Origin: an uncultured delta proteobacterium
GTDB lineage: Bacteria > Desulfobacterota > Desulfomonilia > UBA1062
DNA: 64,000 bases
Reading direction: 5' to 3'
Assembly: GCA_963785235.1 (NCBI GenBank)
Contig: CAWAUM010000009.1
Coordinates: forward strand, 340-64,339
The position numbers and the translations under genes are program-made. Positions 22,558 through 62,215 of the stretch are shown here, piece after piece. The first letter of the stretch is position 1. Each line of letters opens with the position of its first letter. A model generated the notes under the pieces. The model was not told where the DNA came from. It ran no database searches and worked only from the letters and a program-made list of their open reading frames with translations.

Positions 22558-22780
22558 AATCCGGGTTTTGCGCTTGAATGCACCCATAAATACTCAATGC
22601 ACAACAGGCGCTCTTTAAGTATAAAACTCATAGTGCCATGGAATTGTTTTTTAATTAGGTCCGTTCAAAACATCAATCTTGCAGCCTTGAAGGACCGATA
22701 TAATTAGCGCTCCACAAAGGCTGCAAGATTGATGTTTTGAAGGAAAAAGGTTTTACGGTTCTTAAATGCAAAATCCGGAT
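22558..22780 (-). repeat. hairpin-MITE family, full copy
   Basis: Ends AATCCGGGTTTTGCGC ... TGCAAAATCCGGAT. Central hairpin 22658-22745 with the 7-bp box CATCAAT/ATTGATG. Starts 10 nt after the aroF stop. Confidence 0.85.
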
Positions 22781-22816
22781 CGATAAGATGGACTTGTTCC
22801 TATTCATGAACGAAAA

Positions 22817-23200
22817 CTACAGGATTGATTTTACTGCCTGCAGCAACGGTTCGCGCATTATAGGTTTTTTCATTTCATAGAGCGTGTCGAAATTTTTTAT
22901 CATTTTAAGATAATACTCAGGTGCAATCTGATCACCGCCGGATATGGCGATGATCTTCACATCGGGCGACAGCAGCCGCAGCTCCATGATGGTTTGCACA
23001 CCGCCCATCCCGGGCATGAGGATGTCGGTAATGACCAGGTCCTGCCGGTGTTCGTTGAAAATCCTGACCCCATCATCCCCATTGCACGCCTCATCCACTT
23101 CATACCCTTCGCGTTCCAACATCTGCCGGAGCACATCTCTGACTGAATTATCATCATCGATAATAAGGATTCGAGCCAAATCATGCCCCCCTAGCACCAT
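22817..23200 (-). CDS. single-domain response regulator (CheY-like receiver)
   Basis: ILIIDDDNSVRDVL...DLVITDILMPGMGG...KIIAISG. Confidence 0.8.
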   Translation of the reverse strand: MVLGGHDLARILIIDDDNSVRDVLRQMLEREGYEVDEACNGDDGVRIFNEHRQDLVITDILMPGMGGVQTIMELRLLSPDVKIIAISGGDQIAPEYYLKMIKNFDTLYEMKKPIMREPLLQAVKSIL

Positions 23201-23380
23201 TATTATATCAAGTCTTGTATGATTTGCAAATAACTGCTTTTATGAAGAACATATTCTTTTTAAGATGATAGTTGTCTTTTGTTGTAAGTCAACCGGGATT
23301 TTCTACAAATATGCTTTGAAATTGACAGTAAGTCTGTAATATCATCTCATCGTCAGAATTGAAAATACCAAAGGGGCCAT

Positions 23381-58861: not shown

Positions 58862-61800
58862 ATGCCAAAGAGAACCGACATCCACAAGATCATGATCATC
58901 GGGAGCGGGCCCATTGTCATAGGCCAGGCATGTGAATTCGACTATTCCGGCACCCAGGCCTGCAAGGCCTTAAGGGAACTCGGCTATAAAATTGTTCTTG
59001 TCAACTCGAACCCGGCCACCATCATGACCGACCCGGGCATGGCCGATGCCACCTATATCGAACCTTTGAATGCAACCGCACTGGAGCCTATCATAGCCAA
59101 GGAGATGCCCGATGCCATCCTGCCGAATCTGGGCGGCCAGTCGGGCCTGAACCTTACCTCTGAGCTCCACCGCAAGGGAATCCTAGAAAAGTACGGGGTC
59201 AAGGTGATCGGCGTGAATGTGGACGCCATCGAGCGCGGCGAAGACAGGCGCGCCTTTAAGGAGACCATGACCCGCCTGGGCATCGAGATGCCCAAAAGCG
59301 AACTCGCCTACACCGTGGACGAGGCCGAAAGAATAGCCTCCGAGCTGGGCTACCCGGTTGTGCTCAGGCCTGCCTACACCATGGGCGGCACGGGCGGCGG
59401 TCTTGTCTACAACGTGGAGGAACTGCGGACCGTTGCAAGCCGTGGCCTTTCCGTGAGCCTCATCGGCCAGGTGCTTGTGGAAGAGTCCGTGCTCGGATGG
59501 GAAGAGCTGGAACTCGAGGTGGTGCGCGACGCCAAGAACAACATGATCACGGTCTGCTTCATCGAGAACGTGGATGCCATGGGCGTGCACACGGGCGACT
59601 CCTTCTGCACCGCACCCATGCTCACCATTGACAAGGAGCTCCAGAAGAGGCTCCAGAAGCACTCTTACGACATCGTGGAGGCCATCGAGGTGATCGGCGG
59701 CACCAATGTCCAGTTCGCCCATGACCCGAAGACGGGCAGGGTCGTGGTTATCGAGATAAACCCCCGCACGTCGCGTTCATCCGCACTGGCGTCCAAGGCC
59801 ACGGGCTTCCCCATCGCACTCGTGTCCAGCAAGCTCGCAGCCGGGCTCACCATGGACGAAATCCCCTACTGGCGGAGCGGCACCCTGGACAAGTACGAGC
59901 CCTGGGGAGACTATGTGGTGGTGAAATTCTCCCGCTGGGCCTTTGAGAAGTTCAAGGGCTCCAAGGACCAGCTCGGCACCCAGATGAGGGCCGTGGGCGA
60001 GGTCATGAGCATTGCAAAGACCTACAAGGAGGCGCTCCAGAAGTCCATCCGCTCGCTGGAAATAGGCCGGTATGGCCTGGGCTTTGCCAAGGACTTCCAT
60101 GAAAAGGACCTCAAGACCCTGCTGGACATGCTCTCAGAGCCATCCAGCCAGCGGCAGTTCATCATGTACGAGGCGCTGCGTAAAGGCGCAAGCGTCTTGG
60201 AGCTTCACCAGAAGACCTACCTGAAGGCCTGGTTCATCGAGCAGATGAAGGAACTCGTGGACCTGGAGGAAAAGATCCTCACCTATAAGGGCAAGCAGCT
60301 GCCCGATGAGCTTCTTATCCAGGCCAAGAAGGATGGTTTTGCCGACCGCTACCTTGCCATGCTGCTGGGCCTGCCTGAGGATGACATCAGAAACCGCAGG
60401 TTGAAGATGGGCCTGGTGCACGGTTACGACAAGGTGCCGGTGAGCGGTGTGGAGAATGCCGAGTATTACTATTCCACCTACAATGCCCCGGACACGATAG
60501 AGGTGAGCGACAGGCCCAAGATCATGGTCTTAGGCGGCGGACCCAACCGCATCGGCCAGGGCATCGAGTTCGACTACTGCTGCGTCCATGCGGCCTTTGC
60601 CATCAAGGCCATGGGCTATGAGTCCATCATGGTGAACTGCAACCCCGAGACGGTCTCCACCGACTATGACACCTCCAACAAGCTCTACTTCGAGCCGCTG
60701 ACCGTTGAAGAGGTGTTGAGCATATACAACAAGGAAAAGCCCATGGGCGTGATCTGCCAGTTCGGCGGCCAGACCCCGCTGAATATTGCCAATGAACTTG
60801 CAAAGGCCGGGGTGAAAATCCTGGGCACCTCTCCTGTCACCATCGACCTTGCCGAGGACCGTGACCGCTTCGGCAAGATGATGGTGAAGCTGGGCATCCC
60901 CATGCCCGAGTCCGGCATGGCAAGCACCCTGGATGAGGCCCTGGCAATTGCAAACCGCATCGGATACCCGCTCATGGTCAGGCCGTCGTATGTCCTGGGC
61001 GGCCGCGGCATGGAGGTGGTGCACGACGAGGACATGCTCCGGGAATATGTCCGCGCGGCCGTTGACGTGACACCCGAGCGGCCCATCCTCATCGACAAGT
61101 TTTTGGACAACGCCATCGAGGCCGAGGCGGATGCCATCTCGGACGGGGTTAATGCCTATGTGCCTGCAGTCATGGAGCACATCGAGCAGGCGGGTGTCCA
61201 CTCGGGCGATTCGGCATGCGTGATCCCGCCCATCAGCATACCCACCAAGCATCTGGACACCATCATCGAGTTTACCAAGCGCATCGCCATCGAGCTCGGC
61301 GTGGTAGGCCTCATGAACATGCAGTATGCCATCCACAAGGACACGGTCTATGTCCTGGAGGCAAATCCCAGGGCCTCGCGGACCGTTCCGCTGGTATCCA
61401 AGGTATGCAATATCCCCATGGCCAACATCGCCACCCAGATCATCCTGGGCAAGAAGCTCGGTGATTTCGACATCACCCCCAAGACCATACGACACTTCGG
61501 GGTAAAAGAGGCGGTATTCCCTTTCAACATGTTCCCCGAGGTGGACCCCCTGCTCGGTCCCGAGATGCGCTCCACCGGCGAGGTGCTGGGCATGGCGGAC
61601 AGCTTCGGCCTGGCCTTCTACAAGGCATCGGAGGCGGCATCTCAATATCTGCCCAAGGAAGGTACCGTGCTGCTGACTGTGTCCCGTCGGGAACGTCCGG
61701 CAGTGCTCGAGGTGGCACGGCTCTTTACCGAGCTGGGCTTCAAGATCAAGTCAACGCTGCATACCCATGCATTCCTCAAGGAGAACGGAATCGCTGCCGA

Positions 61801-62062
61801 GCTGGTGCTCAAGCTCCACGAGGGCAGGCCCAATATCATCGACGGCGTCAAAAACAAGGAATATGCACTGATCATCAACACGCCCAGCGGCAAACTCTCT
61901 AAGCATGATGACTCCTACATCCGCAAGGCAGCCATCAGCTACAAGGTTCCCTACATCACCACATTGTCCGCGGCAATCGCCGCAGCCAAGGGGATTGCCG
62001 CCTACAGGCAGGGCGAGGGTGTCGTCAAGTCATTACAGGAGTATCACCGGGATATCGGTTGA
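58862..62062 (+). CDS. carB: carbamoyl-phosphate synthase large subunit
   Basis: 1066 aa, intact. Two ATP-grasp halves (IGSGPIVIGQACEFDYSG ... LGGGPNRIGQGIEFDYC) and a C-terminal MGS-like domain. Confidence 0.95.
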   Translation: MPKRTDIHKIMIIGSGPIVIGQACEFDYSGTQACKALRELGYKIVLVNSNPATIMTDPGMADATYIEPLNATALEPIIAKEMPDAILPNLGGQSGLNLTSELHRKGILEKYGVKVIGVNVDAIERGEDRRAFKETMTRLGIEMPKSELAYTVDEAERIASELGYPVVLRPAYTMGGTGGGLVYNVEELRTVASRGLSVSLIGQVLVEESVLGWEELELEVVRDAKNNMITVCFIENVDAMGVHTGDSFCTAPMLTIDKELQKRLQKHSYDIVEAIEVIGGTNVQFAHDPKTGRVVVIEINPRTSRSSALASKATGFPIALVSSKLAAGLTMDEIPYWRSGTLDKYEPWGDYVVVKFSRWAFEKFKGSKDQLGTQMRAVGEVMSIAKTYKEALQKSIRSLEIGRYGLGFAKDFHEKDLKTLLDMLSEPSSQRQFIMYEALRKGASVLELHQKTYLKAWFIEQMKELVDLEEKILTYKGKQLPDELLIQAKKDGFADRYLAMLLGLPEDDIRNRRLKMGLVHGYDKVPVSGVENAEYYYSTYNAPDTIEVSDRPKIMVLGGGPNRIGQGIEFDYCCVHAAFAIKAMGYESIMVNCNPETVSTDYDTSNKLYFEPLTVEEVLSIYNKEKPMGVICQFGGQTPLNIANELAKAGVKILGTSPVTIDLAEDRDRFGKMMVKLGIPMPESGMASTLDEALAIANRIGYPLMVRPSYVLGGRGMEVVHDEDMLREYVRAAVDVTPERPILIDKFLDNAIEAEADAISDGVNAYVPAVMEHIEQAGVHSGDSACVIPPISIPTKHLDTIIEFTKRIAIELGVVGLMNMQYAIHKDTVYVLEANPRASRTVPLVSKVCNIPMANIATQIILGKKLGDFDITPKTIRHFGVKEAVFPFNMFPEVDPLLGPEMRSTGEVLGMADSFGLAFYKASEAASQYLPKEGTVLLTVSRRERPAVLEVARLFTELGFKIKSTLHTHAFLKENGIAAELVLKLHEGRPNIIDGVKNKEYALIINTPSGKLSKHDDSYIRKAAISYKVPYITTLSAAIAAAKGIAAYRQGEGVVKSLQEYHRDIG

Positions 62063-62077
62063 ACTGAATAAGGACTT

Positions 62078-62215
62078 GTTTTTAAAATAGGTCCGTTCAA
62101 AACCTTAAAGATCGCAGCCTTTGTGGAATGCTGATTGTAGCGGTCCTTCAAGGCTGCGATCTTTAAGGTTTTGAACGGATCAGGTTTTTACACTTTTTGA
62201 ACGCGAAATCCGGGG
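62078..62215 (-). repeat. hairpin-MITE family, half copy; loop in the minority orientation
   Basis: Hairpin 62090-62181 with box CCTTAAA/TTTAAGG. CTTGCAGCC is replaced by GATCGCAGCC, compensated by GGCTGCGATC. It then runs GGTTTTTACACTTTTTGAACGCGAAATCCGGGG. The CCATGG-containing arm is absent. Starts 16 nt after the carB stop. Confidence 0.8.

Follow-up and report, generated by a model that had tools for sequence, protein, structure and literature searches.

A compensated hairpin with an inverting top in a dispersed ~225-bp intergenic repeat of an uncultured bacterium

Results

Nine hairpins within an intergenic repeat

The 64-kb window analysed here (the whole 64,000-nucleotide stretch of contig CAWAUM010000009.1, from an uncultured delta proteobacterium) contains nine dispersed hairpins in which a 7-nt segment of the stem, the box, differs between copies and is complemented on the opposite arm. 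An earlier note on this DNA, made from the sequence alone, had described these hairpins, and all nine, with their positions and their seven box variants, are found as listed. Eight are 84–90 nt long with 26–29 consecutive pairs each. The ninth is shorter (49 nt, at 51.1 kb); it shares its base with the others and has a box, CATGCAT, but its top reads CTCGG-TGAAG-CCGAG and not CTTGCAGCC. All 63 box positions in the nine copies are paired, and each box is the exact reverse complement of its counterpart, as the note had stated. The base and top that it took to be constant are less so, because the top of the 51.1 kb copy departs from the rest and four stem positions outside the boxes are unpaired. 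One of them is a 1-nt deletion, in the 22.7 kb copy, and the others are the mismatches C.A (26.5 kb), A.C (35.2 kb) and T.G (40.0 kb). The deletion is missing from the near-identical contigs L056 and L059, and is therefore either private to the window or an assembly error. With one mismatch or fewer, CCGTTCAAAA has 23 matches in the window where 3.95 are expected (none of 100 shuffles reached 23), and these combine into nine inverted repeats. Folded as single-stranded DNA, the hairpins have energies of -29 to -41 kcal/mol, with z-scores from -9 to -17.

The hairpin is not the whole element but one part of an intergenic repeat of about 225 bp that has terminal inverted repeats of its own, as seen both in an alignment of the copies with their flanks and with an nhmmer model. 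The repeat runs from its left end, CCGGATTTTGCGTTTAAGAWGCGTAAAAACCTGAT, through the hairpin to ACCTATTTAAAAACAATTCCATGGTCACTATGAGT...GGTACATTCAAACGCAAAATCCGG, and its ends read CCGGATTTTGCGTTT...AAACGCAAAATCCGG between TTAAC on the left and GTTAA on the right. The terminal inverted repeats, in which CCGGATTTTGCGTTT pairs with AAACGCAAAATCCGG, span about 15–19 bp and are imperfect and decaying, with 55% Watson-Crick pairs over 20 positions and clearly better pairing over the outer 15 or so. Both junctions are AT-rich, commonly TTAA, TAA or TTA, and one copy has GTTAAAT on both sides; the TTAA junctions are palindromic, and a target duplication is indistinguishable there from a longer terminal repeat. 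When the complete copy at 49437–49663 is folded, the ends pair and the central hairpin forms (z = -10).

All copies are intergenic, most beginning 13–36 nt past a stop codon and several lying between convergent genes, and both orientations of the element occur in the window. The neighbouring genes are ordinary chromosomal ones: carB, phosphoenolpyruvate carboxykinase (PEPCK), a glycyl-radical enzyme and its activase, 2-hydroxyglutaryl-CoA dehydratase, a Crp-family regulator, and a response regulator. The repeat, at the ~225 bp of the model, has no coding capacity. A conserved micro-ORF (open reading frame) in the right half (ATGGTCACTATGAGT...) was considered and rejected, as its frame is broken by indels in several copies of the alignment.

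Database and signal searches identified no known family. None of the 30 window ORFs scanned against Pfam has a transposase domain. No Rfam family reaches its gathering score anywhere in the window, and nothing useful appears at E values up to 10; the sub-threshold matches are weak long hairpins, mainly microRNA precursors, with 18–32 bits against gathering scores of 74–200. A terminator scan of 34900–51300 calls no copy of the element, and no U-tract adjoins the stem; a combined promoter and terminator scan likewise leaves the elements unflagged. The plasmid collection holds no match to the element and the viral contigs none to the search pattern.

A scan of GTDB with one genome per species finds the family in a single species, represented by the metagenome-assembled genome (MAG) CAYMDG01, whose record is labelled uncultured Bacteriovoracaceae bacterium; the matches elsewhere, in other taxa, are isolated and apparently due to chance. 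Identity between this MAG and the window is about 92%, and the two are syntenic in three stretches. A metagenome scan adds 34 further loci, and nhmmer recovers 53 copies overall, which reduce to 45 distinct hairpins. The repeat family is undescribed, and we found it in one uncultured lineage only. The exact products of window genes 45116–46165 and 25691–26383, both of which adjoin copies, have nothing on record, and an exact-product look-up with the response regulator at 22817–23200 gives only contigs shorter than 1.5 kb. These four short-read contigs (L056–L059) end at most 120 nt past the response regulator gene, in or just before the repeat; the break falls within the left arm in L056 and within the hairpin top in L059, and the repeat evidently fragments short-read assemblies of this organism.

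Pairing and compensation across the family

Pairing was counted in an alignment of 43 distinct hairpins, and the perfection of stems in 42. The 29-pair outer stem is 97.6% paired, compared with 30–49% in slid registers, and 13 of its 29 pairs are changed on both sides, in 86 cells of the alignment. Over the whole structure there are 87 such cells as against 27.7 +/- 4.9 in shuffles, and none of 500 shuffles was as high, so that this covariation test bears out the proposal of the earlier note that structure is kept while the sequence drifts. There are 17 distinct perfect 26-bp stems, and a minimum spanning tree connecting them needs 26 both-arm substitutions, which is a lower bound. Twenty-six hairpins have perfect stems, 13 have one mismatch and three have two, with the mismatches clustered at the pairs closest to the loop.

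Each arm has the form CCGTTCAAAAC-box-ATCTTGCAGCC, and the stem ends are CCGTTCAAAAC and GTTTTGAACGG. The boxes vary and pair as reported for the window, but in the larger sample the variable segment has no sharp edges: five adjacent pairs vary, two of them strongly, and compensated changes beyond the box, in the base and top, include CCGTTA/TAACGG, CCGAT/ATCGG, CTCGCAGCC/GGCTGCGAG, and CTTCCAGCC/GGCTGGAAG. An alternative pairing of the left flank, AAAAACCT, with the right arm was considered and dropped, as the alignment shows the flank unchanged when the box changes.

Compensation is confined to the perfect palindrome. The imperfect upper helix of these copies shows 75.6% pairing, and one of its six pairs is changed on both sides; the terminal inverted repeats, some 190 nt apart, have many one-sided changes and only rare compensated ones. 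Maintenance of pairing is therefore local to the perfect palindrome, as template switching would give. The composition of the pairs is also informative: only about nine of some 1245 cells are wobble pairs, most of the alternative pairs differ by transversions (CG to AU, UA to AU, GC to CG) and have no wobble intermediate, and about one third of the mismatches are wobbles, the level that mutation alone would give.

The only clearly broken hairpins that we found are in L027 and L008, metagenome and MAG contigs that represent the same locus. Here the right arm leaves the family after GGCTGCAAGATAA (ATAACAGTCTTG / ATAATTGTCTTG) and the box is unpaired; the left boxes are CCTTGAT and CCTCAAT, and the right flank is identical in the two.

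The top of the hairpin inverts

The 32-nt top is asymmetric, with a conserved internal loop, and relative to the asymmetric flanks it occurs in two orientations: TTTGTGGAACGCTAATTTTATCGGTCCTTCAA (flip) in 31 of the 45 copies and its reverse complement (flop) in the other 14. Flop tops align well with flip tops once they are reverse-complemented. The orientation has no phylogenetic structure (p = 0.56), the nearest relative is a flip copy for 12 of 13 flop copies, and every common box allele is found with both orientations. Repeated inversion of a loop of about 30 nt that is flanked by arms of 27 bp is the hallmark of template switching or arm exchange, and the same process makes the arms identical. 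We considered site-specific inversion of the top and regard it as unlikely, since the invertible segment is only about 30 bp, which we judge too short for a recombinase synapse.

Another departure is seen in the 3-nt flanks of the stem. These are usually GAT...ACC, but are GGT...ATC in the window copy at 39971–40060 and in L004_698 and L010_5459; the usual triplets are here reverse-complemented, as if an inversion had ended beyond the perfect stem, although the top of the 39971–40060 copy is still flip.

Hairpin replacement at orthologous sites

Eight pairs of orthologous copies were compared, with flanks 87–98% identical, and they fall into two groups. In three of them (22.7 kb/L012, 37.3 kb/L004, and L043/L029) the hairpin is 96–98% identical and the new changes are one-arm mismatches. 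In the other five (the 35.2, 40.0 and 46.2 kb copies and their MAG counterparts, L033/L038, and L016/L050) the hairpin is only 65–83% identical: the box is another one and the loop often lies the other way round, but the element's idiosyncratic ends are kept. Among the conserved sites, the hairpin at 22.7 kb is 98% identical to its MAG orthologue, and that at 37.3 kb is 95–96% identical to L004_2876, which has the one-arm change CCGGTAT/ATAACGG. Among the replaced sites, the MAG orthologue of the 35.2 kb copy, L004_698, keeps the ends but is 69–70% identical in the interior, with box CGTCAAT and a flop top; the orthologue at 40.0 kb, L004_5486, has a hairpin 65–66% identical with box CAGTCAT; and at 46.2 kb two independent assemblies (L015 and L030) both have box CCTCAAT, a flop top, and a hairpin 75% identical to that of the window. 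Independent assemblies concur on alleles at other loci also (L025 = L041 = L040, and L050 and L042 are one base apart).

The window copies at 35.2, 37.3, 40.0 and 46.2 kb have the hairpin (83–92% identity) and the next 50 nt (69–88%) in common but do not share the left flank. Replacement of the hairpin with the ends kept, together with alleles common to neighbours, indicates short-tract gene conversion, mostly between nearby copies, that moves whole hairpin alleles. The three copies with box CCTTTAT (35.2, 40.0 and 46.2 kb) carry a single allele that has spread locally, which counts as one event and not three. The earlier note had recognised that its box variants might simply be palindromes copied whole; for CCTTTAT this is so, but the family as a whole still shows 26 or more independent both-arm substitutions.

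All five window copies in regions overlapping the MAG are shared with it, and in the two window orthologue pairs that are unconverted the hairpin differs at 1/85 and 4/85 positions, as against 11–38% in the other segments of the element. One presence/absence difference was found, a truncated copy at L004 3105–3367 (contig CAYMDG010000073.1) that is missing from the window. It adjoins the orthologue of the 37258–37476 copy and consists of the left part and the hairpin, with box CCTTCAT, base CCGAT/ATCGG, and top CATGCAGCC; it lies between ...GATTTA and TTTACG..., borders that hint at a TTTA/TTA target.

The box and its surroundings

We asked whether the box behaves as a specificity or address module, as the earlier note had suggested. 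Its nucleotide diversity, 0.30–0.32, is the same as that of the element flanks and right half (0.27–0.37), and the stem base and top have 0.04–0.07 over all copies and 0.09–0.16 in the 14 copies not selected by the search pattern, so that their constancy is inflated by that pattern yet persists in unselected copies. Box alleles do not track similarity over the rest of the element (distance 0.280 versus 0.302, p = 0.12), and boxes have six matches in the neighbouring 300 bp compared with 6.6 in shuffled assignments, so that box and neighbouring sequence are not associated. This makes the box the part that drifts freely in an otherwise constrained stem, and the suggestion of an address finds no support.

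Copies in the window

The window contains six full or nearly full copies, two right-truncated ones, one short derivative, and two remnants (Table 1). Full copies are all in the right two thirds (22000–62300), at about one per 4–5 kb, and positions 1–22000 hold one remnant only; in this part the G+C content is lower and patchier (0.42–0.55).

Table 1. Copies and remnants of the repeat in the 64-kb window
Feature	Coordinates	Strand	Hairpin	Box (left/right arm)	Top	Remarks
Remnant	13872..13967	+				left end, left arm, part of top; right arm lost; nhmmer 38.5 bits, model positions 3-96
Full copy	22559..22781	-	22661-22745	CATCAAT/ATTGATG	flip	nhmmer 203 bits
Remnant	24717..24756	-				left end to first hairpin bases (…TTGATCCGTTA); nhmmer E = 0.004, model positions 6-46
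Right-truncated copy	26403..26545	+	26445-26527	CCTCAAT/ATTGAGG	flop	base CCGTTA/TAACGG compensated; one C.A mismatch
Full copy	35075..35300	-	35178-35261	CCTTTAT/ATAAAGG	flip	one A.C/G.T mismatch
Full copy	37258..37476	+	37300-37383	CCGTTAT/ATAACGG	flip	
Copy with truncated right end	39935..40137	+	39974-40057	CCTTTAT/ATAAAGG	flip	one T.G mismatch
Full copy	46182..46398	+	46213-46296	CCTTTAT/ATAAAGG	flip	28 consecutive pairs
Full copy	49437..49663	+	49478-49561	CAGTCAT/ATGACTG	flip	base CAAAT/ATTTG compensated
Short derivative	51062..51144	+	51079-51127 (49 nt)	CATGCAT/ATGCATG	other 5-bp top	without the element's right half
Right-truncated copy	62075..62217	-	62093-62178	CCTTAAA/TTTAAGG	flop	GATCGCAGCC/GGCTGCGATC compensated

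A further palindrome is present at 47648–47698; a 1-nt spacer separates its 25-nt arms, which have one mismatch (ACCGTAAAAATGTGTTGAGTTCCTC / GAGGAACTCAGCACATTTTTACGGT). Its base is like the CCGTTAAAAA base of the repeat, but the flanks of the repeat are missing, and the palindrome could be a distant relative or represent a second hairpin family. Its inner part (47663–47683) is called terminator-like on the minus strand, the only related call in the stretch scanned. Outside the window, contig L039 has at 3441–3743 a full copy joined head-to-tail to a partial one of the same sequence, which comprises left end, left arm and top; this is a local partial duplication with its junction inside the hairpin.

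Several genes in the window are split into overlapping ORFs in different frames, in the regions 35358–37173, 27609–29945 and 37499–39915. PEPCK is divided between 35358–36485 and 36280–37173, the PFL-like glycyl-radical enzyme extends over three or four ORFs, and the D-component of 2-hydroxyglutaryl-CoA dehydratase is in at least two pieces. These splits suggest assembly indel errors or pseudogenes, and because of them single-base indels in the window are to be treated as unreliable.

Discussion

We have described here a family of intergenic repeats in which a long hairpin keeps its arms complementary while their sequence changes, inverts its top, and is replaced at orthologous sites. The explanation that we favour, and consider reasonably likely, is that arm-to-arm template switching together with gene conversion between copies keeps the stem paired as the sequence drifts. 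The box would then be the least constrained stretch of a perfect stem of 27–29 bp, and complementarity of the arms would be kept up mainly by a DNA-level process, in which template switching within the palindrome during replication would copy one arm from the other, so that a change in one arm would be either erased or written into both, and the same switching would flip the asymmetric top. Whole hairpin alleles would subsequently pass between copies by gene conversion, especially between neighbours. Template switching creates and repairs perfect stems and inverts loops (PMC8794818), and quasipalindrome template-switch mutation is established in E. coli (PMC7202029). The less variable islands in the stem (CCG.T.AAA at the base and GCAGCC at the top) are probably protein contact sites or reflect a structural requirement, which would make the box a spacer in which only pairing counts, and not a code. 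The earlier note had offered two causes for the compensation, selection on an RNA or DNA hairpin and homogenisation between the arms; the second fits better, given that 14 of 45 tops are inverted, wobble pairs are rare, many double changes are transversions, and neither the distant repeats nor the imperfect upper helix are compensated, and selection on an RNA gains no specific support.

Several observations weigh against this explanation, or at least against its being complete. No template-switch event has been seen directly, and no two copies differ solely by a flip. Correction of the arms is not instantaneous, since 16 of 42 hairpins have one or two stem mismatches. In the unconverted orthologues the hairpin is more conserved (1/85 and 4/85 differences) than the remainder of the element (11–38%), and as this exceeds what arm copying predicts, purifying selection on the hairpin also seems to be at work. 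The conserved stem islands likewise need either selection or a very recent common origin. Most of the copies come from short-read metagenome assemblies, which are poor at palindromic repeats, although independent assemblies agree on the alleles. We think it probable that selection on the hairpin acts beside arm copying, and by analogy with REPINs our likeliest guess for the selected role would be a cis-acting site for a mobilising enzyme.

There are several other models to consider. Selection alone could act on a single-stranded hairpin bound by a protein, as a cis site of a mobilising enzyme or of a host factor; on the model of REPINs and their RAYT transposases, or of IS200/IS605 ends and TnpA, mismatched copies would be lost and compensation would come about by ordinary point mutations. 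The conserved islands flanking a variable paired spacer are consistent with this, as is the superior conservation of the hairpin in unconverted orthologues; REPINs themselves show invariant ends and a compensated spacer (PMC3116915), and the copies are old and at orthologous sites, as in vertically inherited families. We consider it doubtful nonetheless, because no candidate protein was found, with no RAYT homologue in about 320 kb and no transposase domain among the scanned window ORFs, and because selection by itself leaves the repeated loop inversions and the excess of transversion-type double changes unexplained; binding of a protein can, however, coexist with arm copying. An RNA hairpin under selection, with the stem serving in 3' untranslated regions to terminate transcripts, to stabilise the mRNA or to offer a site for RNase III, would account for the position of most copies shortly after stop codons and often between convergent genes, and both strands fold strongly as RNA (z about -10). 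It is nevertheless unlikely, since G.U pairs are almost absent and the one third of mismatches that are wobbles is what mutation alone gives, since both loop orientations and both element orientations occur, and since the copies are neither called terminator-like nor followed by a U-tract next to the stem, and have no Rfam match at gathering score and only weak generic long-hairpin matches below it.

A more radical proposal is that the hairpin does the work in a small mobile or domesticated element of a new kind, in which a dedicated structure-specific enzyme reads the folded strand through the islands and copying, as in rolling-hairpin replication, has a self-primed or resolved hairpin as its intermediate. 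We regard this as very unlikely; if true, the intermediate would regenerate matched arms with flip and flop as a by-product, and turnover of hairpins would be enzyme-driven in place of passive gene conversion. It is more improbable still that perfect stems and flips are produced by assemblers that collapse the arms or thread the loop either way. Short-read contigs do break in or just before the element and the frameshifted window genes suggest indel errors, but independent assemblies give identical hairpins at the same loci, the 38% of copies that retain a mismatch argue that arms are not collapsed, and assemblers usually finish with k-mers that are probably longer than a stem of 27–29 bp. The interpretation of the box as an address, a variable paired segment encoding a target or partner, is prompted by its position between conserved parts of the stem, and is exceedingly improbable: its diversity is that of neutral-looking flanks, it is matched within the surrounding 300 bp no more often than in shuffles, it does not track the rest of the element, and the same alleles occur at unrelated loci and different alleles at orthologous ones. 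Template switching and gene conversion, probably accompanied by some selection on the hairpin, is the combination that we prefer.

The element resembles intergenic palindromic repeats of the kind of REPINs and transposable elements of the miniature inverted-repeat type (MITEs). REPINs are the closest known kind; they are REP doublets that form hairpins, with inverted conserved sequences, a less conserved middle, and frequent compensatory changes (Bertels & Rainey 2011, PMC3116915). Like them, our element has an extragenic hairpin of about 85–90 nt with two inverted conserved sequences and a compensated, less conserved middle, and is dispersed, non-coding, and largely vertical in its inheritance. 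REP sequences are described as 20–40-bp palindromes tagged with GTAG or CGTC (PMC3733652), whereas the arms here are not palindromic and have neither tag at their ends, and the hairpin is only part of a ~225-bp unit that itself has terminal inverted repeats. Flip and flop of the loop are not mentioned in the parts consulted of the REPIN literature cited (PMC3116915, PMC3733652). A tblastn search with E. coli RayT against the window and the 53 loci gave nothing better than E = 0.37, and is uninformative as it covers only about 320 kb.

Most of the features of bacterial MITEs, such as the Correia elements of Neisseria, ERIC, and RUP, are also present: a length within 100–400 bp, imperfect terminal inverted repeats, AT-rich junctions, intergenic location, and many copies, together with truncated derivatives and one insertion polymorphism. 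The difference is that an internal long perfect palindrome is far better maintained here than the terminal repeats. Hairpins attributed to template switching are alike in their perfect Watson-Crick stems, simultaneous changes in both arms, and loop inversions (Monttinen & Loytynoja 2022, PMC8794818; PMC7202029), although those studies concern rRNA, microRNA or reporter genes, and here we have a multi-copy bacterial repeat with an added layer of gene conversion. The family displays the loop inversions, multi-base both-arm changes, and Watson-Crick-only stems used to recognise such events (PMC8794818), and it is from these that we infer the switching events themselves. Integron attC sites are similar in being imperfect palindromes with structure conserved above sequence, but we reject this assignment because the hairpins have no R''/R' core sites (RYYYAAC / GTTRRRY) and no extrahelical bases, their stems are perfect, and copies are found on both strands among housekeeping genes in conserved synteny. 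Assignment as intrinsic terminators also fails, no copy being called in 34900–51300.

This family adds an undescribed and very dense repeat, at about one copy per 4–5 kb over 40 kb of an uncultured bacterium's chromosome, and the flip/flop top and rapid turnover of the hairpin are noteworthy as its distinctive details. It offers an unusually clean natural case of stem 'covariation' that need not imply a functional RNA: distant inverted repeats decay in the very copies whose perfect palindrome is kept and flipped, which calls for caution when covariation is used to discover RNAs in repeat-rich genomes. These repeats could also be used to measure template switching and short-tract gene conversion in nature.

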